A stretch of DNA of 64,000 bases from a bacterium UBP11_UBA4055 (GCA_002382735.1 DFZN01000071.1:55542-119541); one strand, 5' to 3'; shown: positions 47,197 through 63,376, counted from the stretch's first letter. Notes: generated by a model not told the origin, from the letters alone. Program-made: numbers and translations.

Positions 47197-47198
47197 CT

Positions 47199-48062
47199 CT
47201 ATTCCTGTTTTTTATCTCTTATGAAAAATCTTGCCGCTGCGAAAGACGCTGTGATGACCGCCAAAAGGATTATAGCCGCCGCCCATCCCATTCCGTGCCA
47301 GTGCTCGTACGGGCTGATAGCCAGGTTGTACAGCCTTTGCGGCAGAGTATCGACCGGTCCGAATATCCAGCCTGTCCACTTGACCGGCAGGTAATTGTTG
47401 CCGAACGAGGTAAAAACCAGCGGCGCTGCTTCTCCGGCTGCCCTTGCGAACGCGATCAAAAATCCCGTTACGAGCCCTACTTTGGCCGCAGGGATGATAG
47501 TAGAGAGAATTACTCTCCATCTGGGCAGGCCGATAGCGAGCCCGGCTTCTCTGATCGACCACGGGATGTTCATCAGCGCGCTTTCGGTCGCTCTGGCGAT
47601 TATGGGGAACATGACGAAAGCCAGCGCGACGCCTCCGGAAAGCCCGGAAAACGAGCCCATGGGTTTTACGACAAGCACGAAAGCGAGCAGGCCTTTTAAG
47701 ACCGCGGGCATTCCGTTGAGCGTGTCGTTGAGCACTCTGAGGATCGGGTTCGCCCAATGGTCGGGATATTCTGACAGCATGACGCCCGCACCGATCCCGA
47801 ACGGGATCGATATCAGCACGGCCATAATATCAACGACAGCCGTACCTATGATCGTGTGAACAAGTCCTGTCGGTTCTCCCATCATGTTCCTTGTCGGCGA
47901 TCCGAGTTCTTTCGTGAACAGGTCGAGGCTGATATAATTAAATCCCTGGACTATTACATAGCCGAGTATGATAAAAAGAGGAATAAGAACCGCGACAGTA
48001 TTGAGTATTATAAAAACGAGCACAACATTATCCCGTGCGTATCTGCTTCTGAGACTCCTCAT
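47199..48062 (-). CDS. pstA: phosphate ABC transporter permease PstA
   Basis: A multi-TM permease with an EAA-like loop (…[14 protein letters not shown]…). The true start, MRSLRSRY, overlaps the pstC stop (ATGA). The track ORF to 48608 is an alternative-frame read-through of GC-rich DNA. Confidence 0.9.
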
Positions 48063-49063
48063 ACCGCCCTCCCGCCGGTCACCGCATATTTTCTCTGTAT
48101 ATAAGCGGCCGCCAGATTCACGATAAGCGATATCAGGAACAGGTAGAACCCTACGGCCATAAGGCTTGTTAAATGAATGTTCTCGACCGCTTCCCTGAAC
48201 TCGTTCACTATTACCGATGCCATGGTCGAACCGGGGCCGAAGAGGGTGAAGGGGAGAGTGTTCTTGTTCCCGATCAGCATCGCGACCGCCATCGTCTCGC
48301 CGATAGCTCTGCCCAGCGAGAGCATAGTGCCGGCAAGTATTCCGCCCCTTGAGTACGGGATCACGGCCATCCTGATGACCTCCCATTTGGTCGCGCCGAG
48401 AGCACTGGCGGCTTCCCGCTGCTCTTTGGGCACCATTCTGAACGCGTCCACCGTGAGAGCCGTAGTAAAAGGAATGATCATGATCGTTAAGATTATCGTC
48501 GCGGTCATCATTCCGTACCCGATCGGGTTTCCCAGAATGGGAGTCAGTCCCGGCGCGTTCTCCAGCGACCAGATGTAAACGGGAATCTCGACCGTGTCCC
48601 TGATCCACGGTGTGAATACGAACACTCCCCAGATCCCGATAACGACGGACGGGACAGCCGCTATCAGGTTAACAAGGTTCTCGATAATATGCGAGAGCCA
48701 GTGCGGAGCGTATTCGGCCGTGAAGACCGCGATCGCGATCGCGGGGATGAACGAAAGTGCCAGAGCACCGAGGCTTGTTGACACCGTGCCGACTATGAAC
48801 GGCCACGCACCGAATTCCATGGTTATAGCAGGATCCCATTTTTCGCCTGTTAAAAATCCCCAGAACCCGAATCTCGTGATCGCTTCCGAGCCCTCATAAT
48901 AAAGTGAAATGGCCATAGCGAGAGTCGTAAAAATGACGATAAATCCTAAAACGAAGACGGAGACAGCGAATATTCTGTCTCCGAGCCATCCGTACAGCGC
49001 AGACGGGCTGACATTTATTTTTTTTGTGTTGTTATCGGACACTTTATTAGTCTCCTTAGCCAA
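48059..49063 (-). CDS. pstC: phosphate ABC transporter permease PstC
   Basis: A multi-TM permease with an EAA motif (REAASALGATKWEVI). It has a TTG start; a GTG about 20 nt downstream is an alternative start. Confidence 0.9.
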   Translation of the reverse strand: MAKETNKVSDNNTKKINVSPSALYGWLGDRIFAVSVFVLGFIVIFTTLAMAISLYYEGSEAITRFGFWGFLTGEKWDPAITMEFGAWPFIVGTVSTSLGALALSFIPAIAIAVFTAEYAPHWLSHIIENLVNLIAAVPSVVIGIWGVFVFTPWIRDTVEIPVYIWSLENAPGLTPILGNPIGYGMMTATIILTIMIIPFTTALTVDAFRMVPKEQREAASALGATKWEVIRMAVIPYSRGGILAGTMLSLGRAIGETMAVAMLIGNKNTLPFTLFGPGSTMASVIVNEFREAVENIHLTSLMAVGFYLFLISLIVNLAAAYIQRKYAVTGGRAV

Positions 49064-50135
49064 GTATTTTTTTGCCGATCTCTTCGCCGTTCCATTTAAG
49101 TTCTCTTATCATAGCTTTGTTCTTATCTACTGCAGCCTTAGGAAGTTTTGCATATCCGAGCCTTTCCGAAAGACCCTGTCCGTCAGTGATAGCCCAAATA
49201 AGGAATTTTATCAGTTCTTCCGCTTCATTTTTTGATTTGATGGCTTTGTTCTTCTCGAGGTTCTCGTAAACGAGCATCCATGTGAATCCTGCCACAGGAT
49301 AGCCCTGAGCAGCAGGAGTATCGGTAAATATTATTCTTGTGTCCTCGGGAAGGTCTATGTTTGCAGCTTCTGAAGTCGCTTCGAAATTAGGCTTAATAGT
49401 ATTTCCTGACTTATTGATCAGATAACCGTAAGATATTTTGTTGAGCAGGGCATAGGCATAGCTGTTGTATCCCAGAGCTCCCGGAGTGTTCATTACGACT
49501 CCTGCGACTCCTTCATTCCCTTTAGCACCTACTCCGACAGGCCAGTTCACGCTTGTTGCATAACCGATCTTGTCGGCCCACTCTTTTGAAACTTTTGTCA
49601 GATAGCTTGTCCAGATGTTGGTGGTCCCCGATCCGTCAGATCTGTGTACGACTGTTATGTTCAGGTTTGGAAGCTTGATGCTTTTGTTCAGAGCCTGGAT
49701 ATTTTTGTCGTTCCATTTTTTGATCTTGCCCAGGAAAATGTCCGCGAGGACTTCGCCGTTAAAAACAACGCCTTCCTTTACGCCCGGTACATTATAAGTG
49801 ACTACAACATCAGCAAGTGTAATAGGCATGTTGAAAGCTCTTCCGCCCGTCTTTTTTTCCACTTCTTCAACGATCTCATCATTTAAAAAAGCCTCGGTCA
49901 TTCCGAACATTATCGTCTGTTCGCCGAACTGCCTGATACCGCCGCCAGAACCGATCGACTGATAGTTTACCGTTACTCTTCCGTCAGTTAAAGTTCTGTA
50001 CTGGTCAGCCATTGCTGTTACGAGAGGTGCCGGGAATGATGCCCCCGCACCGATCACTTCGATCTTCTGAGCAAAAGCCGTGCTCATTGCCGCAGCGATC
50101 ACGAGAGCGGCTGCCATTTTTTTTGTAAATCTCAT
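49056..50135 (-). CDS. pstS: phosphate-binding periplasmic protein PstS
   Basis: It has a signal peptide and blocks conserved in PstS/PBP family 2 (…GAGASFPAPL…, …YQSIGSGGG…, …SDGSGTT…). An AAGGAG RBS lies 7 nt before the ATG at 50135. Confidence 0.9.
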   Translation of the reverse strand: MRFTKKMAAALVIAAAMSTAFAQKIEVIGAGASFPAPLVTAMADQYRTLTDGRVTVNYQSIGSGGGIRQFGEQTIMFGMTEAFLNDEIVEEVEKKTGGRAFNMPITLADVVVTYNVPGVKEGVVFNGEVLADIFLGKIKKWNDKNIQALNKSIKLPNLNITVVHRSDGSGTTNIWTSYLTKVSKEWADKIGYATSVNWPVGVGAKGNEGVAGVVMNTPGALGYNSYAYALLNKISYGYLINKSGNTIKPNFEATSEAANIDLPEDTRIIFTDTPAAQGYPVAGFTWMLVYENLEKNKAIKSKNEAEELIKFLIWAITDGQGLSERLGYAKLPKAAVDKNKAMIRELKWNGEEIGKKILG

Positions 50136-50201
50136 AAACAATCTCCTTGTTAGTTTTCGTCTGTAATATCATGTTTGATTGTTTGAATAGTTTTTGCGAA
50201 T

Positions 50202-50221
50202 TGTTAGAATTGTGTTAGAAT
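50202..50221 (-). promoter_or_regulatory. putative Pho box: two TGTTAGAAT (minus-strand ATTCTAACA) direct repeats with 11-bp periodicity, 67-86 bp upstream of pstS
   Basis: The sequence is ttgTGTTAGAATtgTGTTAGAATtat. PhoB/PhoP-type boxes are 11-bp-periodic direct repeats. The same TCTAACA heptamer recurs at 55450. Confidence 0.45.
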
Positions 50222-50398
50222 TATAATTTTTAACATTAATTATTATGAATGACATTTAGTATTTATGTAACAAAAGTATCGAAATTCGGTATTTATCTCG
50301 TAGAGGAACTAAGATATGAGCATAACTGAAAATGATTTTTAACATTAAAATGGACAGTGCCCTGTATCTCTTTTCGAATTAAAAAAAAATCGGAAAAA

Positions 50399-50749
50399 CT
50401 AAATTATTTTAAGAGCGATGTCAGAAATCTGCTGTTTATTCTGAGGTAAATGGTTTTTTATCACATCCCAGATTATTTCATGATCTATCCCGAAGTATTC
50501 GTGAGAGACTTTGTTTCTCATAAGATACATCTCCATCCATGGAAAATCGGGGTATTGATCTTTTATTCCCTGAGAAATATTCTTTGCCGCTTCTCCAATC
50601 ACTTCTAAATTCCTGATAACAGCATCAACAGTCTTAGAGTCGTCAAGAAAATCATCATACTCCATACCGTTCACATACTCTTCAATTTTCTCAATTGAAA
50701 GGACTATATCTTCAAAATACATTCTATTTGTTCGAAGTTCTTTCTTCAT
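50399..50749 (-). CDS. hepT: HepT-like HEPN (DUF86) toxin
   Basis: The Rx4HxY motif is RNKVSHEY. It is a 116-aa protein whose start overlaps the upstream NTase stop. Confidence 0.8.
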   Translation of the reverse strand: MKKELRTNRMYFEDIVLSIEKIEEYVNGMEYDDFLDDSKTVDAVIRNLEVIGEAAKNISQGIKDQYPDFPWMEMYLMRNKVSHEYFGIDHEIIWDVIKNHLPQNKQQISDIALKII

Positions 50750-51039
50750 CAGATATATTTCACCTGGCTTAATATACTATCTCTAATCTGAGATTTCAGG
50801 GCATTTCTGGTTACAAGATCAACTTTTCTGCCAAGAATTTTTTGAAGGTATAATTCAAGAGTGAAATATTTCCAGCCGACAGGTTTCTTGAAATCTACTA
50901 AAATATCGACATCACTGTCGTTATTATAGCTGCCGTCTGAGAAAGATCCGAAAATACCGAGCCTTTCGACTGCGTATTCTTTAGCCAGTTCGGGCATTGA
51001 TCTTTTAAGGATTCCGATTATTTCTTCATCTTTTTTCAT
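50749..51039 (-). CDS. mntA: MntA-like minimal nucleotidyltransferase antitoxin
   Basis: LGIFGSFSDGSYNNDSDVDILVDF is the NTase GS…DxD motif. It lies upstream of, and overlapping, hepT. Confidence 0.8.
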   Translation of the reverse strand: MKKDEEIIGILKRSMPELAKEYAVERLGIFGSFSDGSYNNDSDVDILVDFKKPVGWKYFTLELYLQKILGRKVDLVTRNALKSQIRDSILSQVKYI

Positions 51040-51209
51040 AAAGGGAATTTAAACAAATTTAACTCCAACTGCAATGATTTTAACAAAAATCCTTTCTCCG
51101 CCATTATTTGGCGTAATCCTTTGTTTATATTTCTTCTGTCGTTAATTTTACTCGGAGGTAAATTATATGAAAGGCGCGATACATTATAAACTGAAAACGG
51201 AGTAAAATA

Positions 51210-52163
51210 ATGCCTGAAAAATATCAGATGGAAAGAATTCTCGCGGCTTTAAAAGCGCTCACGACGGTCGGTTACATCAAAAGAGAAAGCTTAATGGAGG
51301 AATGCCGGATAAGCTCGAGGACATTCGACAGGTTCATCGCCGATCTCAAGTTATATGTGCCCGTCATATATGACGATGTGAAAAACCGGTATGTGATCGA
51401 CCGCACCAAGGCTAATCAGAGAACCGAGATGCTTGAGTATTATAAAAAGGTGATGATAAAAGATGACTTTCTGCTTTTTTACGCGTTCGTTCGCAGCATG
51501 ATAAAAAGCAAATATTTTTTCCCGCCGTTCAGCACTGAATACGGTACATCATCGCAGCCCAGAGATTTTGCAAAGGTACTTAAGATGCTCGAGGATCTTG
51601 TCAGCCCTGTGGATAAAAAGATTTACGATAAGGTCGAATATTTTCTATCGGGGCATTATCATTTCCGGAACAGACCGCACTACAAAGATGTGTGCGAAAG
51701 GATATGGTATATGATCGCATATCTTGTTGAATCGAGCAAAGTGCCTGAAGAAGAATGCAATGTAGTCAGAACATACAAAATAGCATATATTAAGAATTCC
51801 GAGCTTGTAAAAGGCGAATTCTATCCCGTTCACGAAGAAGAACCGGAATACAGTTTCCAGAATTCCTTCGGGATCTATATGGATGAGGCTTTAAAAAGAG
51901 CGGTCATCAATATTTATGGACATGCTGCGCATGACGCAATGGAGATCGTATGGCATCAGGATCAGTTCACGCGAGATCTGAAAGACGGGGACGGAAACAA
52001 GTTTACCCAGATAAGCCTGGATTATCCCGAAAAGGGCGGGGTTGAGCTGATGTCGAGAGTTTTGTCATTCGGTACAAATGCCGAAATAGTGTCGCCACCG
52101 GAATTGAAAGCTCAGTGGCAGAATGAAATTAATGCTATGGGCAAAAAGTTTCTAAAGGAATAA
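51210..52163 (+). CDS. WYL-domain transcriptional regulator (N-terminal HTH, central WYL, C-terminal WCX-like; PafBC/BrxR/CapW-like)
   Basis: The N-terminal HTH is YIKRESLMEECRISSRTFDRFIADL. The C-terminal VLSFGTNAEIVSPPELKAQW resembles the conserved '…ILSFGxxVEVLEPxELR' tail of WYL regulators. Confidence 0.6.
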   Translation: MPEKYQMERILAALKALTTVGYIKRESLMEECRISSRTFDRFIADLKLYVPVIYDDVKNRYVIDRTKANQRTEMLEYYKKVMIKDDFLLFYAFVRSMIKSKYFFPPFSTEYGTSSQPRDFAKVLKMLEDLVSPVDKKIYDKVEYFLSGHYHFRNRPHYKDVCERIWYMIAYLVESSKVPEEECNVVRTYKIAYIKNSELVKGEFYPVHEEEPEYSFQNSFGIYMDEALKRAVINIYGHAAHDAMEIVWHQDQFTRDLKDGDGNKFTQISLDYPEKGGVELMSRVLSFGTNAEIVSPPELKAQWQNEINAMGKKFLKE

Positions 52164-52175
52164 TCCCGAATAAAA

Positions 52176-52595
52176 TTATAAATTATTTCGAACTGAATGA
52201 ATCCTTACCGGAATCACTTTTGAGAACTCAAAAAAGTCTTTGTCGGTACTAAAAATGCTTATATTTCTGTTTATAGAGACGGCGCAGATGAGAAAATCTA
52301 TATGAGACCCCTGTATTCCATTCTTACGGCAGATATTATACAGCTCAGAAGCCTTCTCGTAATCTTCAGAATTTATAGCCATATCTTCAAAATATTTTAA
52401 TTTGTCTTTCAGCATTTCATATTTTTCAGCCTGAGAAATTCCTGATAATAACTCCTGCCTAACAGGTCCGATGATCACCGCTCTAAATTCTTTTATCAGT
52501 TCCTTAAGCTCATTCACCGTCTTTTTTTCATCGCCTGTAAGAGTCTTTTTTCTCAGAGCGAGTGACCATACCGAGGTGTCAATAAGAACTTTCAT
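52176..52595 (-). CDS. vapC: PIN-domain ribonuclease toxin VapC
   Basis: MKVLIDTSVW carries Asp6. Acidic residues are conserved in later helices. It overlaps the upstream antitoxin by 4 nt. Confidence 0.8.
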   Translation of the reverse strand: MKVLIDTSVWSLALRKKTLTGDEKKTVNELKELIKEFRAVIIGPVRQELLSGISQAEKYEMLKDKLKYFEDMAINSEDYEKASELYNICRKNGIQGSHIDFLICAVSINRNISIFSTDKDFFEFSKVIPVRIHSVRNNL

Positions 52596-52792
52596 TTTCT
52601 GTTTCTCATTTTTTTATAATCATAATCTTTTTCATATTCGACAGTCCCGAATATCCCGATTATTTCTTCCTGCTTGTGGTGCATGATAAATTCGCGCAGA
52701 GCTGTATTAACGGTTTCTTTCTTGGTCGGAATACAGGAAATTTTCTGTGCTTCGATTATTAGATTATCGTCAAGTGATAGATTCGTAGGCAT
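52592..52792 (-). CDS. vapB: VapB-family antitoxin
   Basis: MPTNLSLDDNLIIEAQKISCIPTKKETVNTALREF is the typical VapB/DUF2191 N-terminus. AGGAGG lies 6 nt upstream of the ATG at 52792. The track starts earlier, at 52831. Confidence 0.7.
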   Translation of the reverse strand: MPTNLSLDDNLIIEAQKISCIPTKKETVNTALREFIMHHKQEEIIGIFGTVEYEKDYDYKKMRNRK

Positions 52793-52862
52793 AACAACCT
52801 CCTTGTTTCTTTTGTGTGTAATATAACACAAACCAATGTGTAAGTCAAATTTTTATTATAAA

Positions 52863-54635
52863 TTATTTCGGGATAACCAGTGTAAAAGTCGATCCCTTGC
52901 CGACTTCGCTTTCAACTGTCGCTCTGCCTTTGTGCAGGTTCATGATGTGTTTGACTATGGAAAGCCCTAAACCCGTTCCGCCTTCTTTTCTGCTTCTTGA
53001 TTTGTCTATGCGGTAAAATCGCTCGAATATTTTGTCGAAATGAACAGGACTGATCCCCTGGCCTTTGTCAGTTACGGAGAAGTTGACTGTACCTTCCTCC
53101 TCGAAACATTTTACTGAGACTTCGGAACCTTCAGGGCTGTATTTTATCGCATTGTCAACGAGGTTCAAAAGAGCCTGTTCGATAAGAGGCTGGCTGCATC
53201 TGAAGTTCCCTGATAAAGAAGAACCGGACTGAATCGCGATCTTTTTTTCACCGGCCTTTCCGGAGCACAATTCTTTTACATTATTAATAATGACATCGGC
53301 TTTTGCTTCGCTCAGTTCGAATTCTTCTTCCTTCTCCTCTTTCTCCAGAGTAGCCAGTGTAAGCAGGTCCTCGATTATTGAATTGAGCCTGTCAACATGT
53401 TTTTGTATAATATTGAGAAATTTCCGCCGGTCATCGTCAGACTGTTCCTCGTCGATAAGAGTTTCAACGAACCCCTTTATGGAAGTCAGCGGAGTTCTTA
53501 ATTCGTGCGAGACATTGGCTACGAATTCCCGCCTGATGTTCTCGAGCCTCTTAATATCGGTGATATCGTGCATAACTATGACCGCGCCTATCGTTTTACC
53601 GAAAGCGTCCTGCAGCGAACTTCCCTGAATGTGAATGAAAATATCTCTGCCTTCAAAATTGAGCCGCATTTCCTTCTTTTCGGAGGTCACAAGATTATTC
53701 TTAACTAGTGATGTAATGAATTCCTGGATCTTTGTGTTCCTTGTTGCCTCCTGGATCAGTTTACCCTGGGCTTTCTGCGGATCAGCACCGAGTATTCTGC
53801 AGGCCGACTGGTTTATCATTATGACCCTGTCGTCCAAATCAACTGCGATCACACCCTCGATCATGGATTTTAGAATAGCGGACTGTTCCTTATTCCTCAG
53901 CTCAAGTTTTTTGATCTTTTCCTCAAGCTCGCCGGCCATAAAATCCATTGTTTCCGAAAGCTGATTGGTCTCGTATTGCGAATATTCCTCGATCAGATGT
54001 TTAAAATCCCCGTTGGCGAACTTCTTTGCCTTGTTCTTAAGCTGTATCAGGGGCGCGCTGAGCCTTTTTGACAAATACAGGCTTACTGCGGCGAGGAGCA
54101 GCACGACTATAGTTACCACCCAGAGTATCCTTTTTGTGAAAAGTATGATCGTTTCAGTGAAGCTCATCAGCGGATAGGCGGTTCTCACCACGATTTTCCT
54201 GCCGTTTACATTATATACGGGGAGAGCGGCGTACATCAGGTCCTTCTTTAAAGTGGAGCTGAACCTGACCGACCTTCCTCTTTCTCCGGACAGCGCGGCT
54301 GAGACTTCGGGCCTTGTCCTGTGATTTTCCATTGCCGATGCTGTTTCTTTGCTGTCTGCCAGAACAACACCGTTCTCATCGATCACCGTTATTCTGGTGG
54401 TAAGAGCCGAAGCGTATCCCGTAACGATACTGTCGAGCATAGATAACTCATCATCATCCACACTTTCAAGCTGGGCTTTGACGAGCGTGCCTTCATTAAC
54501 TATCTTTTCGAAAATAAAATCCGAGTAGATGTTTTTAAATGTTCTCACCGAAAATATTACTATCAGCAGTCCCGACACGAAGGTTATAAAAACGAATGCG
54601 GGAAAAATGCTCCAGAAAAAAGGTTTTCTTTTCAT
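52863..54635 (-). CDS. phoR: phosphate-regulon-type sensor histidine kinase (2 TM, HAMP, PAS, HisKA, HATPase_c)
   Basis: HisKA is NVSHELRTPLTSIKGFVETL, the PhoR-type H-box. HATPase motifs are LVDNAIKYS, DKGQGIS and GTGLGLSIVKHI. It is adjacent to phoB and near pst. The start was chosen at MKRKPFF. Confidence 0.75.
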   Translation of the reverse strand: MKRKPFFWSIFPAFVFITFVSGLLIVIFSVRTFKNIYSDFIFEKIVNEGTLVKAQLESVDDDELSMLDSIVTGYASALTTRITVIDENGVVLADSKETASAMENHRTRPEVSAALSGERGRSVRFSSTLKKDLMYAALPVYNVNGRKIVVRTAYPLMSFTETIILFTKRILWVVTIVVLLLAAVSLYLSKRLSAPLIQLKNKAKKFANGDFKHLIEEYSQYETNQLSETMDFMAGELEEKIKKLELRNKEQSAILKSMIEGVIAVDLDDRVIMINQSACRILGADPQKAQGKLIQEATRNTKIQEFITSLVKNNLVTSEKKEMRLNFEGRDIFIHIQGSSLQDAFGKTIGAVIVMHDITDIKRLENIRREFVANVSHELRTPLTSIKGFVETLIDEEQSDDDRRKFLNIIQKHVDRLNSIIEDLLTLATLEKEEKEEEFELSEAKADVIINNVKELCSGKAGEKKIAIQSGSSLSGNFRCSQPLIEQALLNLVDNAIKYSPEGSEVSVKCFEEEGTVNFSVTDKGQGISPVHFDKIFERFYRIDKSRSRKEGGTGLGLSIVKHIMNLHKGRATVESEVGKGSTFTLVIPK

Positions 54636-54645
54636 GATCTTATCT

Positions 54646-55335
54646 CTATTTATCCATAAATCTGTATCCGATGCCTCTGACCGTCTGAATATATTTTCCG
54701 GCATCTTTAAGTTTCTTCCTCAGGCTGACCATCATAACATCCACGCTTCTGTCGGTCACCGGATAATTCTCCCCGTGAACGCTTTCAACGATCTGATACC
54801 GCGTGAATACCCAGCCCGGCCGTCCTGCAAGTAGGTGCAGCGCTTTGAATTCCGATGCCGTAAGCATGATCTTTTCATTTTTGACTATAACTTCGTATCT
54901 GCCGGGTACTATCTGCATCTCATGTACCGAGATATTCTCTTTTTTGATCTCGGTGATCTGTTCTTTACGCCTGAGAACTGCTTTAATCCTTGCCACGAGA
55001 ACTTTTGGCGAGAAGGGTTTCAGAATATAATCGTCAGCGCCTATCTCGAGCCCCGTGATAATGTCAGTTTCTTCTCCTTTCGCGGTCAGCATGATCACAG
55101 GGATATTTTCTGTGGAAGGAGACTTTTTCAGTTTCTTGCATATCTCAAGACCGTCCATTCCCGGAAGCATGAGGTCGAGAAGAACAAGATCACAGGCGTC
55201 TGTTTCGATGTATTCCAGAAATTCCTCGCCACTGCCGAATACTTTTGTTACGAACGAATTTTTTGCAAGATTGTAGGAGATCAGCTCCTGTATATCTTCC
55301 TCGTCCTCTACTACAAATATTCTTTCCCTGCCCAT
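54646..55335 (-). CDS. phoB: OmpR/PhoB-family response regulator
   Basis: REC is IFVVEDEEDI…LVLLDLMLPGMDG…VIMLTAKGEE…DDYILKPFSPKVLVARIKAVLRR, a PhoB-like signature. It has a C-terminal winged helix (…VRGIGYRF). Confidence 0.85.
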   Translation of the reverse strand: MGRERIFVVEDEEDIQELISYNLAKNSFVTKVFGSGEEFLEYIETDACDLVLLDLMLPGMDGLEICKKLKKSPSTENIPVIMLTAKGEETDIITGLEIGADDYILKPFSPKVLVARIKAVLRRKEQITEIKKENISVHEMQIVPGRYEVIVKNEKIMLTASEFKALHLLAGRPGWVFTRYQIVESVHGENYPVTDRSVDVMMVSLRKKLKDAGKYIQTVRGIGYRFMDK

Positions 55336-55449
55336 AATTTTCCTCTCGGCTTATGTTTTACAATATACCAAATATCGGATAAAAATGTTAGAGAAATATT
55401 GCACAATTATTAGTATTGAGTTAGAAAACAGTATTTTGCAGAAAAATAT

Positions 55450-55478
55450 TCTAACAAATATTTAACAATACGCTGACA
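55450..55478 (+). promoter_or_regulatory. putative Pho-box array: three heptamers (TCTAACA / TTTAACA / GCTGACA) at exact 11-bp spacing, 34-62 bp upstream of the START-protein gene and in the phoB-divergent intergenic region
   Basis: ttCTAACAaatatTTAACAatacgcTGACAat. It matches the TT(A/T/C)ACA-N5 periodic architecture of PhoP/PhoB boxes. Confidence 0.45.
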
Positions 55479-55511
55479 ATCTTCAAACAATAACTGTTTA
55501 TATTTGGCAGT

Positions 55512-56105
55512 ATGAAATATATCCTTTACATCATATTTCTGATATTTGCGTTCATTCTGGCAGCGGATGAAAACTGGGAACTGAAAAAACAGGGCGGTAA
55601 CTTCAAAGCCTATTTAAAAGACCGCAACGGAAAACACTACAGGATCGAAGCTGAATTCAGCTGTTCTTCCGATTCCGTTTATAATTTTCTGACCGGATTT
55701 GAGCGTTTCCCGGATCACTTCGACAACATAAGTTCTCTGGCGATCCTGAGCTCGAACGATTCTGTCACGATACACTACTCAGTTATCGACGCACCCTGGC
55801 CTTTTTCAGACAGGGACATGATCACAAGAGTAGAGGTTGACAAAGCTCAGGGAAAGACCACGATATTGTCATCAGCCTGCGATCATAAGATCGGATTCAG
55901 TACGGGAAACAGGATCAGAATAGATGATTTCGAAGAAAAACTGGAGATAACAGAAATAGAAAGCGGAAGAACTCTTCTTACGATATCAGGCAGGATCAGG
56001 CTCAAGGAAAATCTTCCCGAATGGCTACAGAACAGGCTCATTCTTTCGGGACCTGTTAAGACGATAGAAATTATCAATAAAAAATACAACCGGAGAATAA
56101 ATTGA
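55512..56105 (+). CDS. secreted START/SRPBCC lipid-binding-domain protein
   Basis: It has a signal peptide and the START-like DAPWPFSDRDMITRVEV block. Length is 197 aa. Confidence 0.55.
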   Translation: MKYILYIIFLIFAFILAADENWELKKQGGNFKAYLKDRNGKHYRIEAEFSCSSDSVYNFLTGFERFPDHFDNISSLAILSSNDSVTIHYSVIDAPWPFSDRDMITRVEVDKAQGKTTILSSACDHKIGFSTGNRIRIDDFEEKLEITEIESGRTLLTISGRIRLKENLPEWLQNRLILSGPVKTIEIINKKYNRRIN

Positions 56106-58771
56106 AAAAGAAGTCTTCATTTCAAGATCAGATGAAAACGGAATTACAGGATTTTCTTGCTTCTCAGCTTGAAAAATATCCCATGGATGAGGTAATAAAG
56201 ATCGACCTTCATTGTCACGATCATAACAGCGATGTGCCCGATGAGCTTATCGGAAGGATACTGAATGTACCTGAGACATGGCTGAGAACAGAGGAACTAT
56301 TATCGGCATTGAAAGCTGAGAAGTGCGATCTGGCAACTATAACCAACCACAATAACGCAAGATCCTGTTTCGAGATGATCAAAAAAGGGGAAGATGTACT
56401 TACGGGAGCCGAATTCAGCTGTCTCGTGCCGGACTATGATATTGGAATACATGTTCTTGCCTACGGGTTCGATGAGGAACAGGAAACGGAGCTCTTCAGG
56501 CTAAAGGAGAATCTTTACGAATTTTTGAAATATGCCCGATCCAAGGATATACCGACGATATGGGCCCACCCTCTTTTCCAGTACAAATCCGACGGCGTTC
56601 CGCCCTTTGATTTTTTTATAAAGCTCTCTCTTTTATTTGAAAGGTTCGAAGTAATTAACGGACAGAGAAATACATGGCAGAACCTGTTATTCAAATCATG
56701 GCTTGAAGGGATCAGATCAGAGGATATGGACAAATGGGCTCTCAAATTCAATATCGATCCTTACGAATACTGCAGAGACCCCTACAGAAAGGTGTTCACC
56801 GGAGGCTCGGACAGCCACATGGGTATTTTCGCAGGTCAGACAGGGTCATTTCTTCATATTCCTGATCTGAAGGAAAGAAGAAAGAAGGAGCCTCTTTCAA
56901 AGCTGGCGCTGGAAGCGATCAGGAAAGGTGATATCGCTGTTTACGGTTCCGATCAGAACACTGAGAAACTCACGATCGCATTTCTGGATTATTTCAGCCA
57001 GGTATGCCTGAATTTTAAAGACCCCGGGCTCACAAGGATGATACTTCACAAAGGCTCAATGAATGATAAGGTCATATCTTTTATCGCCTCTAATGCCGTT
57101 TCAGAGATACAGAGACATAAAGTCACTATAAATTTTATTGAGCTCTTCCACAGATCTTTCAACGGTCAGGTGCCTTCGTACTTCAAAAAACTGCTGATAC
57201 CTTCGGTATATAAACCTGTATTTGATTACGCTGTAGAGATCGCCGAAGCAAAAAAGAAAAAAAATTCCGATACTGTAGGACTTTTCCATAAACATATTAC
57301 ATCTATTTCCGATCAGCTAAATAAAGTGCTTTTTTCAAGGCTGAAGAAGAAACTTGACGAGATCGATTTCGATAAAAAATTCGAAAACACTTCGCTTGAT
57401 AATATAATTAATTTTCTTGAGCTTCCCAGTGACCTTAGGTCATACTCGGGGAGAGAGAATAAAAGATCAGGCAAAATGCTGAATCCCGACATTCCCGGTT
57501 TTCTTGACGGCCTTTCTTTTCCGATGCTGACATCGCTCATAATACTCGCGGCAAATTTCACAAGCGCAAAATCACTGACGCACCTGAGACCTCTTTATAA
57601 TGATTTCTCATTGCGAATAGGTAAATTATCACACCCTAAAAGAATGCTCTGGCTGACCGACACATTCGAAGACAGGAACGGAGTATCAATGTCGTTACAG
57701 GCGATGCACGAAGAAATAAAAAAAAGAAATCTGCCTATAGATTTCCTTGTTTGTTCAAGTACTGTAAAACCGGACAGGAATTTGATCGTTATAAAACCGG
57801 AGATGGAATTCGTTCTTCCGTTTTATAAGCAGCAGCCTATAAGGATACCTAATTTCTTAAAGATACATTCGGTATTTCAGGAAGGTGAATATGACAGAGT
57901 AATATGTTCAACAGAAGGGATCATGGGAGCTGTGGCGCTTTATCTCAAACATGCTTTCACTGTGCCTGCAAGCTTTTATATTCATACCGACTGGATCACT
58001 TTTGCAAAAGATGTGCTGGGATTCGATATACATGAACTTAACAGGACAAGAAGGTATCTCAGGGCTTATTATAAGGCATTCGACAGGCTTTTTGTTCTGA
58101 ATACGGATCAGAAAAAATGGCTTACAGGAAAAGAAATGGGGTTTGAAGAGAATGAGGTATTCGTTACGGCGCACTGGGTAGATGAGATTTTCATGCCTCA
58201 AGAAGTGAAACAAAGGACTGCAAAGAACATTGACAATTCAATATATATGATAGAGGAAAAGAAAGTTCCCACGATCCTCTACGCAGGGAGGATCAGTAAA
58301 GAAAAAGGCGTTATGGAGCTTCCGAAGATATTTAAGAATATACAGAAAAAGATAAAGGACATCAGGATCGTAATAGCCGGAACAGGTCCGGCCGAAAAAG
58401 AGCTTAAGGAACTGCTGCCCGAAGCGGAATATCTGGGCTGGGTGAACCACGCGGACCTTCCAAGGATCTATTCATCGGCCGATATTTTCATATTACCTTC
58501 AAGATTCGACACTTTCGGCTGTGTTATTCTTGAGGCCATGGCCTGCGGACTGCCGGTTATCTCTTACAATACAAAAGGTCCGAAAGATATAATTAATGAT
58601 AATTTCAACGGCTTTCTGGTCGAAAGCGCACAGGAAGCTTCTGACAAGGCCGTATATTATCTGTCAAATCAATGCCTTCATGACAATTTTAAAAAAAGCG
58701 CAGCGGGAAAATCAAAAAGATTCACTCCCGACAGGATACTAAAGGAATTTCTTGAGGCTGTAGAACTGTGA
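56102..58771 (+). CDS. fusion of an N-terminal PHP-family metal-dependent phosphoesterase domain with a C-terminal GT4/GT-B glycosyltransferase
   Basis: PHP motifs are IDLHCHDHNSD, ITNHNN, IHVLAYG and WAHP. GT4 motifs are ILYAGRISKEKGV and ILPSRFDTFGCVILEAMACGLPVI. Its start overlaps the upstream gene by 4 nt. Confidence 0.7.
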   Translation: MKKKSSFQDQMKTELQDFLASQLEKYPMDEVIKIDLHCHDHNSDVPDELIGRILNVPETWLRTEELLSALKAEKCDLATITNHNNARSCFEMIKKGEDVLTGAEFSCLVPDYDIGIHVLAYGFDEEQETELFRLKENLYEFLKYARSKDIPTIWAHPLFQYKSDGVPPFDFFIKLSLLFERFEVINGQRNTWQNLLFKSWLEGIRSEDMDKWALKFNIDPYEYCRDPYRKVFTGGSDSHMGIFAGQTGSFLHIPDLKERRKKEPLSKLALEAIRKGDIAVYGSDQNTEKLTIAFLDYFSQVCLNFKDPGLTRMILHKGSMNDKVISFIASNAVSEIQRHKVTINFIELFHRSFNGQVPSYFKKLLIPSVYKPVFDYAVEIAEAKKKKNSDTVGLFHKHITSISDQLNKVLFSRLKKKLDEIDFDKKFENTSLDNIINFLELPSDLRSYSGRENKRSGKMLNPDIPGFLDGLSFPMLTSLIILAANFTSAKSLTHLRPLYNDFSLRIGKLSHPKRMLWLTDTFEDRNGVSMSLQAMHEEIKKRNLPIDFLVCSSTVKPDRNLIVIKPEMEFVLPFYKQQPIRIPNFLKIHSVFQEGEYDRVICSTEGIMGAVALYLKHAFTVPASFYIHTDWITFAKDVLGFDIHELNRTRRYLRAYYKAFDRLFVLNTDQKKWLTGKEMGFEENEVFVTAHWVDEIFMPQEVKQRTAKNIDNSIYMIEEKKVPTILYAGRISKEKGVMELPKIFKNIQKKIKDIRIVIAGTGPAEKELKELLPEAEYLGWVNHADLPRIYSSADIFILPSRFDTFGCVILEAMACGLPVISYNTKGPKDIINDNFNGFLVESAQEASDKAVYYLSNQCLHDNFKKSAAGKSKRFTPDRILKEFLEAVEL

Positions 58772-60387
58772 CCGAGAGAAACCGTACTGATGATCTTATC
58801 TGGTGGAAGCACGGAATCATCTACCATATATATGTTCTGAGCTTTAAGGATACGAACGGCGACGGTTATGGAGATCTGAGAGGTATCATCGAAAATCTGG
58901 ATCATCTTAAGAATCTTAGAATTCATGCAGTTTGGCTTTCTCCCGTCTTTAAGTCGCCGATGGCTGATTTCGGATATGACATTGAAGATTATTGCTCTAT
59001 TGATCCTGTTTTCGGAACGATGGACGACTTTGACGAACTAATTAAAAAAGCACATGATTCCGGCATAAAGATCATACTCGATATGGTAATGAACCACACT
59101 TCTGATAAACATCCCTGGTTCATCTCGTCCGCTTCATCAAAAGACGATCCTAAAAGGAACTGGTATATCTGGGAGAAAGGCAGGAACGGAAAGCTGCCGA
59201 ACAACTGGAAAACGATCTTTGGTCATACAGCCTGGGAATATGATGCTCGAACTGACGAATATTATTACCACTCGTTCTTAAAAGAGCAGCCCGATCTTAA
59301 CTGGCGAAATCCGGAAGTAAAGGAAAAGTTCTTTAAAATATTCCGTTTCTGGCTCGACAAAGGTGTGGACGGCTTCAGGCTGGATGCCGTAAATTTTATT
59401 GTTAAGGACAAGAAACTTAGAAAAAATCCCAATCTGATCGAACTTCTGTTCGGAAAAAGGAAGTTCTATTCCAGGAACAGGATCGAATCCGTAAAGCTTC
59501 TTCAGGATTTCAGGAATCTTGTAAATTCGTATGATGACAGAATGATGGTAGGGGAGATATTTTCTCTGCCGCCGGGAGAATCGAATGTTGTCGGATTTTA
59601 CCTTTCTTCAGGTGAAGATACATTGAATATGGCTTTTGATTTCTCACTCCTTTTTCAGAGATGGAGCGCAAGAAAATATTACAAAGCTGTGGAACGGTCA
59701 TACGGCGGCATTCCCTCCAAAGGATGGCCGAGCATAGTACTCTCTAATCATGATCTTTCCAGAAGCTACGACAAGTATAAATTCTCTAACCATCCTCTTG
59801 AAAAGGCGAAGATCAAGGCGATGCTCCAGCTGACTCTCAAAGGAACACCTTTCATTTATTACGGCGAAGAAATAGGGATGAAGAACGGTTCTATCCCGAA
59901 AGATAAAATAAAAGACCCGATCGGAAAGATATACTGGCCGCTTTATAAAGGCAGGGACGGGGCCAGGACGCCGATGCAGTGGGACGGTTCTGTCAATGCC
60001 GGATTTTCTGACGCGGAACCGTGGCTGCCTGTAAATAATGACTATGAAATAAATAATGTAATCGCTCAGAAGATCAACGAATACTCGCTTTTAAGATTCT
60101 ACAGCAGGCTGATCTCTATCAGAAATTCTATTCCGGCTTTGAGCAGGGGAGACTGGATCCCTGTATCTAAAGGCAGGGACGATATCTTTTCCTACATAAG
60201 GAGCGCAGGCGGAGAATATCTGCTGATAGTGCTCAATTTCAGCACCAGGGAAAAATCTCTTACTTTTCAGGACTCGAACGAATTCTGTGTTGTCCTTTCT
60301 ACTTCCGGCAGAAGTCTCAATTGTTTTGTTCAGCTGAAGAACTTCAGTGTTCGTCCGCTTGAAGGTCTCATTTTCAGAGTAAAATAA
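58768..60387 (+). CDS. GH13 alpha-glucosidase / oligo-1,6-glucosidase / trehalose-synthase-family enzyme
   Basis: GIIYHIYVLSFKDTNGDGYGDLRGI, DYL…WLSPVFKSP…DFGYDIEDY and GIKIILDMVMNHTSDKHPWF are canonical GH13 subfamily blocks with the catalytic D/E/D context. Its start overlaps the upstream gene. Confidence 0.85.
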   Translation: MTERNRTDDLIWWKHGIIYHIYVLSFKDTNGDGYGDLRGIIENLDHLKNLRIHAVWLSPVFKSPMADFGYDIEDYCSIDPVFGTMDDFDELIKKAHDSGIKIILDMVMNHTSDKHPWFISSASSKDDPKRNWYIWEKGRNGKLPNNWKTIFGHTAWEYDARTDEYYYHSFLKEQPDLNWRNPEVKEKFFKIFRFWLDKGVDGFRLDAVNFIVKDKKLRKNPNLIELLFGKRKFYSRNRIESVKLLQDFRNLVNSYDDRMMVGEIFSLPPGESNVVGFYLSSGEDTLNMAFDFSLLFQRWSARKYYKAVERSYGGIPSKGWPSIVLSNHDLSRSYDKYKFSNHPLEKAKIKAMLQLTLKGTPFIYYGEEIGMKNGSIPKDKIKDPIGKIYWPLYKGRDGARTPMQWDGSVNAGFSDAEPWLPVNNDYEINNVIAQKINEYSLLRFYSRLISIRNSIPALSRGDWIPVSKGRDDIFSYIRSAGGEYLLIVLNFSTREKSLTFQDSNEFCVVLSTSGRSLNCFVQLKNFSVRPLEGLIFRVK

Positions 60388-60665
60388 AAAAAACCGATAT
60401 TTTTATCAGGTCTTCAGGAGCGGATTTTTCCCTTCCCTGCGCTAGTAGGAGGCCTAAGGGTCAGTCCGCTCATTTTGCCTGAATTCTATTTCAAATCTCA
60501 ACTGTAATTTAACGCTCTTATATTAGCATAATATTAAAGCTTAATCAGAATTCTGTTAAATCTTAGAACTTAACTTTCGAAACGATCCCGACCCTCATCT
60601 GAGAATCTTCCGCATCCGAACCCTTTGTGGTAGCAGGTCCCGGCATGAACATCGCGAAATACGGC

Positions 60666-61154
60666 TCAAGCGTCATTTTTTCGAATGCTTTTATCTTCGA
60701 GCTCAAAGAGATCTCCATTCCGATCAGCAAGACCGTAGAGACCGGCAGTAACATCGGGGGTTATTTTGTATGAAGCGTCGATATTGAAAAGCCTTTCCGC
60801 AAAACCGCACGCCGCCCCACCCACGCCCTTTTCGCTTTCATCTTTAGGAATATAGTAGGCTGAGTCGAAATAAAGCTGATTGTACCTGCCTGAATATTTC
60901 ATACCGGCAATATCGTCCTCGAATATCAGCGACTGAGGGTCTTTGTGCCCCATGATACCGAACCACGGCCTTAATCGCATATCGGTGTACCTGAACATTG
61001 TTTGAGTATCGGCGTCCCATGTTGTTTTCATTGTGTAGCTTTCCATTCTTCCCACGGCCTCAACGCCGCTTTTGAACTGCGCATTGGCTGAGAATACGAG
61101 CCCTAGCAGTACCAGCCCCATTCCGATCTTGATCATTATTCTTGTTTTTTTCAT
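60666..61154 (-). CDS. small outer-membrane-like protein (signal peptide); possibly frameshifted near its 3' end
   Basis: MKKTRIMIKIGMGLVLLGLVFSANAQF is a signal peptide. An overlapping minus-strand ORF (60754..60563, shown as + in the track but verified by hand to be minus) ends in …VSKVKF, the aromatic C-terminus typical of beta-barrel OMPs. Confidence 0.5.
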   Translation of the reverse strand: MKKTRIMIKIGMGLVLLGLVFSANAQFKSGVEAVGRMESYTMKTTWDADTQTMFRYTDMRLRPWFGIMGHKDPQSLIFEDDIAGMKYSGRYNQLYFDSAYYIPKDESEKGVGGAACGFAERLFNIDASYKITPDVTAGLYGLADRNGDLFELEDKSIRKNDA

Positions 61155-61369
61155 TCAGTTTCCTCCTTGTTAGATTTTTGTTTGTAATATCGTTCTGTTA
61201 AATTAGAAGAAAACTAAGATAGAGTTAATTTTTTGTTAGAAATGCTTTTATCACAACAAAAAACCCCCCTAAGTGTATATTCAGGAAGGTTTTTCGTGAG
61301 GAGATGTTGTTGAGAAAGAAATTTACGAAACTATTATTAGCAGCTTATTATCGCCTTTTTAGAATATCG

Positions 61370-63376
61370 TTATTTCGTAGCATTCTTAGCAACTATGTAA
61401 TAGAATTTCTTTGCATCATTATATGGTGTAACATACTGATTTGTGGCAACATTAGCTTCGAAAGCGAACCCGCTGTATGGATCGTTCGATGAATAAACAT
61501 CGTAGCTTGTCGCGTCAGCAGAAATAGCCCAGTCGATTACGAGTTCTGTCCCGGATATGCTTGTTACTACATTTGCAGGAATTACCGGTATGATCATTTC
61601 AGGTACAGTATATTCAACTATCAGCTTAGGGGGATATCCTCCCTCATAAGGATCAGCGACCCTTTCATCTGCGTCGCTATCGTCTTTCCAGAAAATACAG
61701 GTCATGCTGTTGCCGCTTGACCATCCGGCTCTGTCAACTACCTCCTGAACTACTGAGGACATATCGGGAAAATTATACACAGTTTCAGCAGTCCATGAAG
61801 GCGGGTTCGTCCAAGTAACCGAGTTGGTTGTTTTAGTCCTTGATGAAAGATTCCATGCGCTTGTGGTGAAAGCCGGCGAATCGTCAATGTCTTCTGCGGC
61901 ATATTTAATATGGTTAAGCGTCCTGGTATCCGATTCGTCAGCTCTGACTTCAAGATACGCCGAAGTAATTGTTGCTCCCTGCGGAATGTTGACTACCTGG
62001 AACCTGATGCCGACCTGCTGATTTCCGGAATCGTCGCAAAATTCAAGGTCAGAACTGTCCATATACATACTGCCATCAGCCATGAACTGCTCGACATCGT
62101 CGGAACCGGAAATCACTGATACAGAGATCGAAGCAGTATTAGTGACGGTTATATATCCTGTCTTCGATTCGGAATCCTGACCGTAAGCATTAGTGACGGT
62201 AAGTGAAACATCATAAGTCCCCGATGCATTCCAGACGACTGAAGGATCTTTTTCAGTGCTGCTTGAAGGATTTCCGCCTGTAAATGTCCATGACCATGAA
62301 GTAGGATTATTCGTCGAAAGATCAGAAAAATTCACAGTCTGACCTATTCCTACACTGACATCATCTGCAGAGAAATCGGCAACGGGCGGGGTCGTAGTCA
62401 TTGTGACAAAACCGAATGGTTGAGTATAAGATGATCCGTTAGAGTTGTCCAGAACGGCTCTTACGAAAGGCTGGTCTGTATAAGAGGAGTAGTCGAAAGT
62501 CGTCCCTGAGCCTACTGTGGTAGTTCCCGCTCCTATCCATGTTATGCTTGCATAGTTCGTGGCGTTGAGAGTGATTGTCTTATTGACATCGTCAACAGTT
62601 ATTCCGCTTATTCTCGGAACAATTGCAGATCCGTTCCCTGACGGTTCATAACAGAAATAGGAAGCTCCGTTATCCATACAGTCGATCAGATCACTCTGTG
62701 TAAGCGCAGGCATAAGCATGAACTGGTAATTATGGTAGAGATGAGACATCGTATGCATGTCATCGTTCGAGTAACCCCAGACAAGCTTCCCTTCAGTGGG
62801 AAAGAAATTCTCATTTATATTATCCCAAAGCTGTCTGTCAGCGGGATACCTGTCCCCCTGATTATAAACCTCAAGTCCTACATTTGTAGGGTAATCTCTA
62901 TACCAAGGAATATACCATGCCCAGTCGTCAGGGGTATAATACCTTCCGGGATGGTTAATATGGGACCTTCCGCCGTTTGATTCTACATTGGGAATTCCCT
63001 GTTCCAGAGTTGCCGATGTTACCGTAAAATTGAAAAATCCGTTGTCATGGTGGCTGTTGGAAAATTCATCACCCCTGACTCCGAGCATTCCGAGTGATTC
63101 CGGAGTAGGTGCTCCGTATGCGTCCCATGGCCAAAGCACAAAATTATGATCTGTCATGGCCAGAATATCATAGTTCGCGTTTGCGTAGGCATTTATGACC
63201 GTGCTTGGTGATTCTGAACCGTCACTGTAAGTCGTGTGTGTGTGAAAATTCGCTTTGTACTGGTTGTAAGTTGACCAGTTTATGTCAGCGTAAGGGTTCT
63301 GAACAAGACTCACAACAGTCTGTCCTAAGAGCGACATTATGATACCGAGTATCAGCACTGCTATCATTTTTTTCAT
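61370..63376 (-). CDS. secreted PHP-domain phosphoesterase-like protein with a central PKD domain
   Basis: It has a signal peptide. PHP motifs are NFHTHTTYSDGS and AMTDHN. The PKD domain is WSWTFTGGNPSSSTEKDPSVVWNASGTYDVSLTVTNAYGQDS. Confidence 0.65.
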   Translation of the reverse strand: MKKMIAVLILGIIMSLLGQTVVSLVQNPYADINWSTYNQYKANFHTHTTYSDGSESPSTVINAYANANYDILAMTDHNFVLWPWDAYGAPTPESLGMLGVRGDEFSNSHHDNGFFNFTVTSATLEQGIPNVESNGGRSHINHPGRYYTPDDWAWYIPWYRDYPTNVGLEVYNQGDRYPADRQLWDNINENFFPTEGKLVWGYSNDDMHTMSHLYHNYQFMLMPALTQSDLIDCMDNGASYFCYEPSGNGSAIVPRISGITVDDVNKTITLNATNYASITWIGAGTTTVGSGTTFDYSSYTDQPFVRAVLDNSNGSSYTQPFGFVTMTTTPPVADFSADDVSVGIGQTVNFSDLSTNNPTSWSWTFTGGNPSSSTEKDPSVVWNASGTYDVSLTVTNAYGQDSESKTGYITVTNTASISVSVISGSDDVEQFMADGSMYMDSSDLEFCDDSGNQQVGIRFQVVNIPQGATITSAYLEVRADESDTRTLNHIKYAAEDIDDSPAFTTSAWNLSSRTKTTNSVTWTNPPSWTAETVYNFPDMSSVVQEVVDRAGWSSGNSMTCIFWKDDSDADERVADPYEGGYPPKLIVEYTVPEMIIPVIPANVVTSISGTELVIDWAISADATSYDVYSSNDPYSGFAFEANVATNQYVTPYNDAKKFYYIVAKNATK

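Follow-up and report, generated by a model that had tools for sequence, protein, structure and literature searches.

A 64,000-nt stretch of DNA from the bacterium UBP11_UBA4055 (GCA_002382735.1 DFZN01000071.1:55542-119541), here called the window and numbered from its first letter, carries at 55371-60387 a divergently transcribed unit that is predicted to be controlled by PhoB; the genome is like those of Candidatus Delongbacteria. On the plus strand of the unit lie genes for a START-domain protein, an 889-amino-acid (aa) protein in which a PHP-fold domain is joined to a GT4 glycosyltransferase (hereafter the fusion), and a GH13 alpha-glucosidase, and from its promoter this START/PHP-GT4/GH13 operon is very probably under PhoB control. 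An earlier description of the locus is upheld and enlarged, its interpretation being supported in part. As a phosphate-starvation response module, the system represents a novel and uncharacterised variant. Its best-supported reading, reached through gene neighbourhoods, is that of a PhoB-controlled phosphate-sparing glycolipid module, PlcP-Agt-like in function and not homologous to PlcP, and this is held with slightly less than even confidence.

Promoters of the phosphate locus

The three plus-strand genes diverge from phoB (54646-55335, minus strand), whose product has PhoB TIGR02154 as its best model, and from a gene for a phoR-type sensor kinase (52863-54704, minus strand; sCache, HAMP, PAS, HisKA and HATPase domains). 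The phosphate-uptake genes of the window, pstS-pstC-pstA-pstB-phoU, occupy 45757-50141 on the minus strand. The START stop codon overlaps the fusion start codon at 56102, and the fusion stop codon overlaps the GH13 start codon at 58768, so the three genes almost certainly form one operon; these overlaps had been described before as ATGA-type, and they are present, but read TTGA and GTGA, respectively. The same divergent order of phoR-phoB and START-fusion-GH13 is kept in four Delongbacteria genomes.

For the intergenic region between phoB and the START gene, the preliminary description had reported three heptamers at exact 11-bp spacing, 62 to 34 bp before the ATG at 55512, and these were recovered (TCTAACA, 55450-55456; TTTAACA, 55461-55467; GCTGACA, 55472-55478). 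To them were added a fourth unit (TCAAACA, 55483-55489) and, exactly 9 nt past it, a -10-like TATATT at 55499-55504, giving a START-operon promoter of four 7-mers at an 11-bp period, a 9-nt spacer and a -10 element (55450-55504, plus strand). A mirror-image four-unit array for phoB, also new relative to that description, was located at 55386-55425 (minus strand) within a promoter spanning 55371-55425 (minus strand; TCTAACT, ACTAATA, TGCAATA, TCTAACA, 9 nt, GATATT); it is the best-conserved part of the intergenic region among four genomes, and is predicted to serve phoB-phoR autoregulation. The reference promoter, that of pstSCAB-phoU (50165-50219, minus strand), reads TCTAACA, TCTAACA, GCAAAAA, TCAAACA, 9 nt, GATATT, and within it the heptamer earlier said to be shared with the region upstream of pstS was confirmed as TCTAACA-N4-TCTAACA at 50202-50219 (minus strand). 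The pstS, phoB, START and orf162 promoters thus have a common layout of four units, 9 nt and (G/T)A(T/A)ATT, and the exact pattern TNTAACA-N4-TNTAACA was found at two sites only in the 64 kb, before pstS and before START, each facing its gene.

A unit matrix was built from the pstS promoters of four Delongbacteria genomes only (the window and the comparison loci L004, L006 and L007), so that scoring of START and phoB was non-circular. With this matrix the START array reached 30.9 and that of phoB 21.3, whereas 100 Markov-random windows gave at most 18.7; START is the best non-pstS site in the 64-kb window and phoB the next. Six composite sites, defined as an array plus a -10 element at fixed spacing, were found in the window, where random windows average 0.01; they precede pstS, phoB, START and, twice, orf162, and the sixth points at the 3' end of the GH13 gene. 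The START promoters of L004, L006 and L011 retain the layout, and in L010, which has no START gene, it sits directly before the fusion gene. The START -10 element ends 7 nt before the ATG in the window (5–7 nt in three genomes: the window, L004 and L006), and this distance, together with the lack of a Shine-Dalgarno sequence, indicates that the START-operon mRNA is probably leaderless, unlike those of pstS and orf162, which have AAGGAG leaders.

The Bacillus PhoP repeat is TT(A/T/C)ACA and the E. coli Pho box is CTGTCAT; the window unit, xTAACA, is closer to the PhoP repeat of Bacillus subtilis than to the PhoB unit of E. coli. As in PhoP and PhoB promoters, 11-bp direct repeats stand in place of the -35 box about 10 bp upstream of the -10 element, and the four window units would correspond to two dimers; the differences are a spacing to the -10 element fixed at 9 nt and the apparently leaderless START transcript. 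By these sequence features the window promoter is of the ordinary Pho-box type, and the earlier suggestion of PhoB-type control over START, PHP-GT4 and GH13 is upheld by a layout common to pstS and phoB and kept in related genomes. Phosphorylated PhoB would bind the four 11-bp-spaced TCTAACA-like units in place of the -35 box and would activate the probably leaderless operon, with pstSCAB-phoU, phoBR and neighbouring genes induced likewise.

The array could instead be a chance AT-rich repeat or the site of a regulator other than PhoB, which would place the operon outside the phosphate response. That reading, very improbable and already largely refuted, is consistent with a response regulator that scores 233 bits against a curated NCBIfam PhoB cut-off of 296, with a unit different from E. 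coli CTGTCAT and with a START promoter in L007 that matches poorly (score 10.4), but it has to meet the four-unit layout of pstS, the most reliable marker of a Pho regulon, in four genomes, the matrix ranks and composite sites given above, the resemblance of the units to Bacillus PhoP repeats, and the phosphate genes that adjoin the fusion in other phyla.

The fusion protein, its partners and their distribution

The fusion (56102-58771, plus strand) comprises a PHP-fold domain, a helical linker and a GT4 domain, and its whole-protein structure model is confident (pTM 0.86). Over the first ~510 aa neither Pfam (E ≤ 1 for the window protein) nor NCBIfam gave a match; among 40 homologues, Pfam returned a weak PHP match in eight (best E 0.013) and PHP_C in four, and a profile hidden Markov model of the 40 sequences found no match among PDB sequences. 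The PHP domain (aa 28-285; 56183-56956, plus strand) was detected by structure prediction only, as a distorted (beta/alpha)7 barrel, in an N-terminal model made with truncated database homologues. Its ligand positions (H37, H39, D44/D47, H83, E104, H117, H156, D237, H239) are invariant in alignments of 61, 40 and 14 sequences spanning four phyla, and the best folds in a Foldseek search were RNase AM (7ug9/9etk), Cv1693 (2yb1) and BAD_1165 (3o0f), at 11–20% identity. The proposal of an N-terminal PHP domain is therefore borne out at the level of the modelled fold, with every metal-ligand position conserved, and the domain is predicted to be a trinuclear-metal phosphoesterase. It shares with COG0613/TrpH-type PHP phosphoesterases the N-terminal motif DLHxH..SD and the full metal-ligand set, and differs from them in its low identity (11–20%), in being missed by Pfam and in being joined to a GT4 domain; enzymes of that type act on nucleotides or short RNA, which need not hold for the fusion.

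The all-helical linker domain (aa 286-510; 56957-57631, plus strand) is basic (family median pI 9.5, charge +9), has one hydrophobic helix at 466-486 and matches no family or fold, Foldseek giving just low-scoring helical-bundle and membrane-protein matches that were judged meaningless. The C-terminal part (aa 511-889; 57632-58771, plus strand) is a retaining GT4 glycosyltransferase, as had been proposed, with Pfam matches over both cut-offs (Glyco_transf_4, 35.2 bits; Glycos_transf_1, 125.3 bits; aa 526-867), a D803-x7-E811 motif that is invariant in the homologue alignments, and a GT-B fold whose nearest Foldseek structures are BshA, MshA, SPS, PimA/PimB' and GlgM (15–20% identity, target-normalised TM-score ≤0.81). 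Of the NCBIfam alignments that start before about residue 600, the best were to GlcNAc-PG synthase and to alpha-monoglucosyl-diacylglycerol (MGlcDAG) synthase; scanned alone, the acceptor-binding half of the domain gave one marginal match, to GlcNAc-PG synthase (E 0.045), too weak to assign an acceptor.

Earlier domain calls held for GT4 and GH13, both clear in Pfam; START falls under its threshold and PHP has no Pfam match. The GH13 protein (539 aa; 58768-60387, plus strand) is cytoplasmic, matches the alpha-amylase catalytic domain of Pfam with 450.9 bits and PDB entry 3wy1 with E 1.8e-127 over residues 8-500, and has the catalytic residues D206, E263 and D329 (H328-D329) for the Asp nucleophile, Glu acid/base and Asp stabiliser. 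Its nearest characterised relatives are Halomonas HaG, QsGH13 and XgtA, and it is HaG/XgtA-like, probably of subfamily 23. The START-domain protein (197 aa; 55512-56105, plus strand) scores 19.4 bits against a Pfam START cut-off of 22 (E 7e-4), matches the bacterial START structure 3qsz with E 2.6e-9 over residues 20-189, and has homologues that carry PF01852; its hydrophobic N-terminus (MKYILYIIFLIFAFILA/AD) may be a signal peptide or a membrane anchor. Only five homologues were found, each at ~50% identity bar one near-identical copy; the protein is fast-evolving, and tblastn matches were confined to Delongbacteria loci. START is a member of the module in the window operon, as first described, but is a Delongbacteria-only addition that is missing in L010.

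The fusion is far from the rarity that its description as an unusual architecture implied: homologues number more than 1000, the best 120 nearly all full length at 53–79% identity, and the fusion is present in 421 of 185,579 species genomes. Its closest relatives (69–79% identity) come from metagenome-assembled genomes of Candidatus Delongbacteria, and it occurs in cultured Dysgonomonas. Homologues are labelled 'glycosyltransferase' only in databases, and the family has gone unrecognised because Pfam misses its PHP domain. A sister family of ~800–820 aa has both the PHP and the GT4 parts. In 57 of 83 non-redundant loci, from Bacteroidota, Spirochaetota, Desulfobacteraceae and Delongbacteria, a GH13 gene follows the fusion gene, and PHP-GT4 plus GH13 is the conserved core. 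Directly after GH13, on the same strand, a protein of ~100–127 aa without a Pfam family is encoded in seven Bacteroidales loci (L013, L017, L019, L026, L027, L028 and L030).

Phosphate transport or regulator genes (pst, PHO4, phoU, phoBR) recur beside the fusion in three phyla. In Delongbacteria, phoBR and pst lie near the fusion gene; pstSCAB is divergent from it in L023, as is a PHO4-GPP34-unknown-pstSCAB-phoU series in L024 and L045; in L070 PHO4 lies upstream and pstCA with phoBR downstream; in L002 a gene for a PstS-like binding protein (PBP) is divergent; and in L029 PHO4 lies 4.5 kb away. The L029 PHO4 promoter, CTTAACA-ATTT-CTTAACA, was found blind by the Delongbacteria matrix (score 21.1), and the motif therefore transfers to Bacteroidota. 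Because the AT-richness of intergenic regions confounds a cross-phylum comparison with all sequence windows, other intergenic regions of the same loci served as the only control. Against these, intergenic regions upstream of the fusion gene outside Delongbacteria scored higher (Mann-Whitney p 1e-5, supportive only, the genomes being related) and were enriched in TAACAT-type 7-mers. In two Spirochaetota loci, TTTCTTTAYR repeats with an 11-bp period precede the fusion gene and PHO4. The leading genes of the pst operon in the Bacteroidota loci L045 (5771-9727, minus strand), L023 and L024, namely PHO4, GPP34 and a 515-aa protein without a family, are unusual members of such an operon.

Several further neighbours are lipid-related or encode glycosyltransferases. 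A GRAM-domain gene lies directly upstream of the fusion gene in L024 and L028, GPP34, of a GOLPH3-like, phosphoinositide-binding family, is a neighbour in L045 and L023, and DedA/VTT genes occur in eight loci, the DedA neighbour having the undecaprenyl-phosphate transporter UptA as its best named match. Small GT4 genes lie beside the fusion in 11 Bacteroidota loci (downstream on the same strand in L019, L027 and L055), and in the representatives scanned (L019, L033 and L055) the best full-length matches were to GlcNAc-PG synthase (E 3e-42), BgsA/IagA (1e-39), processive diacylglycerol alpha-glucosyltransferase (Dgs, 1e-35) and MGlcDAG synthase (Mgs, 5e-26). Between the GT domain of the fusion and the GlcNAc-PG-synthase-like neighbour in L055, identity is 27% over 300 aa. 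An OlsB/GlsB-type N-acyltransferase is encoded directly upstream of the sister PHP-GT4 family in Cryomorphaceae, and genes for a LysE exporter and OsmC adjoin the fusion in some loci.

Possible functions

As a phosphate-sparing glycolipid module, the system would work through a cytoplasmic, probably membrane-peripheral, three-part enzyme. The PHP domain would strip phosphate or a phospho-head group from a phospholipid-derived substrate, the basic helical domain would keep the enzyme on the anionic membrane, and the retaining GT4 domain would move a sugar from a nucleoside diphosphate (NDP)-sugar onto the freed hydroxyl, yielding a phosphate-free alpha-glycolipid with release of inorganic phosphate (Pi). 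GH13 might then trim the alpha-glucosyl head group, extend it by transglucosylation or recycle it, and in Delongbacteria the exported START protein might carry lipid beyond the inner membrane. This reading is preferred because of START, GRAM, GPP34, DedA/VTT, the small GT4s, the basic helical domain and the acyltransferase beside the sister family.

Phosphate-sparing lipid remodelling by PlcP-Agt has been described in SAR11, Roseobacter, Agrobacterium and Pseudomonas (PMC4796936). The likeness lies in predicted Pho-box control, in the pairing of a metal-dependent phosphoesterase with a GT4 enzyme, and in the expected outcome, a phospholipid swapped for a glycolipid with Pi recovered. PlcP, however, is a calcineurin-like metallophosphoesterase, whereas the window domain has the PHP fold; the window protein unites both predicted activities in a single chain that includes a basic helical linker of 225 aa; its conserved partner is a GH13 alpha-glucosidase; and the window-type system is found in Delongbacteria, Bacteroidota and Spirochaetota. 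With another phosphoesterase fold, fused enzymes and an added GH13, the module is not a member of the PlcP-Agt system. The glycolipid GT4 synthases (alMGS/Mgs, BgsA/IagA, Dgs and GlcNAc-PG synthase) share the retaining GT4 fold and give the best NCBIfam scores among models that reach the acceptor-binding half of the fusion GT; they differ in lacking a PHP or helical domain, and the fusion scores far under their cut-offs.

A number of observations weigh against the glycolipid reading. No paper on the PHP-GT4 family, and no study of its biochemistry or expression, was found in literature searches; about 20 loci have no adjacent GH13, most loci have no lipid-related neighbour, and START, GRAM and GPP34 are each limited to a few lineages. 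All matches to glycolipid glycosyltransferases lie far under the NCBIfam curated cut-offs. The fusion has no predicted transmembrane segment, its membrane binding being read from charge alone. Among the structures nearest to the PHP domain, RNase AM and Cv1693 act on nucleotides or RNA and PsfC is not a hydrolase, and those nearest to the GT domain include the soluble-acceptor enzymes BshA, MshA and SPS besides the lipid enzymes PimA and PimB'. The nearest characterised relatives of the GH13 protein hydrolyse small soluble alpha-glucosides, we know of no established role for a cytoplasmic GH13 of HaG type in glycolipid synthesis, and the most faithful partner of the fusion, being of soluble type, is left unexplained.

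These last points are where a soluble glucoside cycle, unlikely yet the strongest of the alternatives and foreshadowed in the preliminary description by a glycoside synthase/phosphatase, has its advantage. Here GT4 would glucosylate a phosphorylated metabolite (candidate acceptors being e.g. hexose phosphate, glycerol-3-phosphate, glycerate phosphate or inositol phosphate), PHP would dephosphorylate the product and GH13 would hydrolyse the resulting alpha-glucoside, so that a PhoB-controlled loop would free Pi from sugar phosphates, comparable to the yeast trehalose cycle, or build a phosphate-free solute. The faithful GH13 partner (57 of 83 loci), its intact triad and its nearness to the disaccharide- or heteroside-specific alpha-glucosidases HaG, XgtA and QsGH13 (E 1e-127) fit such a cycle, as do the soluble acceptors, two of them phosphorylated, of the structural neighbours BshA, MshA, SPS and GlgM, the cytoplasmic location of the conserved-core proteins without a transmembrane segment, the soluble nucleotide substrates of the closest PHP relatives, and the LysE exporter and OsmC genes nearby in some loci. 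Left unexplained, on the other hand, are START, GRAM, GPP34, DedA, the glycolipid-type GT4 neighbours and the basic helical domain, and no kinase, NDP-sugar pyrophosphorylase or solute transporter recurs in the cluster.

Among enzymes that make compatible solutes, a synthase/phosphatase fusion is the rule, and cyanobacteria co-locate synthase and hydrolase genes. SPS-SPP, TPS-TPP and GgpPS resemble the window protein as fusions of a glycosyltransferase and a phosphatase, with a product hydrolase possibly encoded nearby, and the working principle of SPS-SPP may apply to the fusion. They differ in that their phosphatase (C-terminal in SPS-SPP) has the HAD fold, as all known solute phosphatases do, unlike the PHP fold seen here, that their glycosyltransferase belongs to GT20 or else is a GT4 of SPS type that matches the models strongly, and that they respond to osmotic stress, not phosphate; the fusion matches the SPS model TIGR02472 weakly over a short stretch (63 aa, E 1e-9; cut-off 576 bits) and has no HAD domain in Pfam. 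The core pair is better explained by the soluble cycle, and the variable neighbourhood by the glycolipid reading.

It is improbable that the fusion instead modifies envelope glycans, by dephosphorylating and glycosylating a polyprenyl-phosphate-linked or lipid A/lipopolysaccharide-type substrate, with sugar replacing envelope phosphate in phosphate starvation or with capsule or exopolysaccharide being made. The surroundings of the sister family are suggestive of this, with Wzi and a second GT4 in L092, a Wzm/Wzt cluster near L089, and GtrA, an epimerase and Glyco_trans_1_3 in L093, and many GT4 enzymes act on lipid-linked glycans, UptA being in addition the best name for the DedA neighbour; the 890-aa family itself, however, is usually a one- or two-gene unit with GH13 outside large glycan clusters, no flippase, polymerase or Wz gene lies near it, and GH13 would have no obvious role.

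Equally little weight is given to a reading in which PHP does not take the first step, either hydrolysing the nucleotide by-product or donor of the glycosyltransferase (NDP, pAp-like) or being non-hydrolytic or regulatory, so that the protein would be a Pho-induced GT4 with an accessory domain. RNase AM, Cv1693 and BAD_1165 do bind 5'-phosphorylated nucleotides, and PsfC illustrates that the PHP fold supports non-hydrolytic chemistry, but identity to those solved relatives is just 11–20%, the complete set of trinuclear ligands, as is usual in phosphoesterases, does not vary between phyla, and the strictly conserved fusion order with its helical linker argues for coupled chemistry. Glucan synthesis by glycogen synthase or a GlgM-GlgE-like route was rejected, the GH13 being of oligo-1,6-glucosidase/HaG type, not GlgE, and glg genes not being recurrent, and a trehalose OtsA/B system was rejected as well, since that system uses GT20 and HAD enzymes.

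For the preferred glycolipid reading, a more far-reaching form is put forward tentatively and is itself doubtful: PHP-GT4 would be a 'phospholipid-to-glycolipid converter' of the Pho regulon, contained in a single polypeptide with a membrane-binding helical domain and widespread in Bacteroidota, Spirochaetota, Delongbacteria and Desulfobacterota, GH13 would reshape the alpha-glucosyl head group or return it for reuse, perhaps through transglucosylation that needs no NDP-sugar, and Delongbacteria would add a START carrier and a Pho-box-driven small RNA.

The surrounding phosphate island and the meaning of the module

At least six Pho-box promoters, one of them for a candidate small RNA, mark the region from 45.7 to 63.4 kb as a Pho 'island'. 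The segment of the candidate small RNA (60385-60560, minus strand) is convergent to GH13, and in it a composite-site Pho-box promoter at 60506-60560 would drive a conserved non-coding transcript of ~115–145 nt (~115 nt in the window, 60385-60499). The predicted transcript has the 5' sequence UUUGAAAUAGA, a long-range stem UCAGGC/GCCUGA and an invariant core CCUAGRCCUCCUACUAGCGCAGG (given also as CCUUAGRCCUCCUACUAGCGCAGG), in which CCUCCU is anti-Shine-Dalgarno-like. Its intrinsic terminator, which shows compensatory changes, adjoins the stop codon of GH13. The transcript contains no open reading frame (ORF) of 20 aa or more and matches no Rfam family. Equivalents were seen in Delongbacteria contigs only (L004 14285-14479, L006 14300-14505, L094, L095, L097 and L098), and the segment is a candidate for a Pho-regulated small RNA.

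Beyond the candidate small RNA lies orf162 (60566-61154, minus strand), a remnant of a 460-aa secreted protein without a Pfam family that is intact in L004 (14475-15857), L006, L094 and L095. In the window it matches in two reading frames with residues ~208-407 missing, and a deletion or frameshift has therefore occurred. Two Pho-box-type promoters with composite sites precede it (61186-61240 and 61320-61374, minus strand), one of which is kept in L004. A 668-aa secreted protein (61370-63376, minus strand) has a PKD domain and, near its N-terminus, a weak match to PHP (E 1.6e-4); L006 and L012 keep it beside the operon as well. The window scan found no clear four-unit Pho box upstream of its gene, and the protein may be an extracellular phosphoesterase of the same phosphate island.

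The interval between pstS and phoR differs between genomes (window 50220-52860; L004 2587-6663; L006 6681-6770): it measures 90 bp in L006, is occupied by AbiEi/AbiEii and other genes in L004, and contains unrelated ORFs in the window (e.g. 51210-52163 on the plus strand and 52176-52595 on the minus strand). Such variation suggests a hot spot for insertions within the phosphate locus. In the metagenome contig L096, whose PhoB is 99% identical to that of the window, the 460-aa gene leads directly to the small-RNA core, which lies within a terminator hairpin; next come the Pho-box promoter for phoB and, lastly, phoBR. No START-fusion-GH13 operon separates the 460-aa gene from phoBR, so even near-identical genomes differ in where the operon sits or in whether they have it.

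Most of what is known about phosphate-sparing remodelling of membranes concerns Proteobacteria and phytoplankton, in which PlcP-Agt and related enzymes carry it out. In three phyla, promoter motifs and gene neighbourhood link the fusion family to phosphate-uptake and regulator genes. Should it prove to be the functional counterpart of PlcP-Agt in Bacteroidota, Spirochaetota and candidate phyla, it would provide a new Pho-regulon marker for anoxic-sediment and gut metagenomes, a new activity for the PHP fold and a function for a conserved GH13 subfamily. Should the soluble glucoside cycle hold instead, the module would be the bacterial counterpart of the trehalose loop by which yeast recovers Pi, and this too would be novel. 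The presence of the fusion in cultured Dysgonomonas puts both readings within direct experimental reach.

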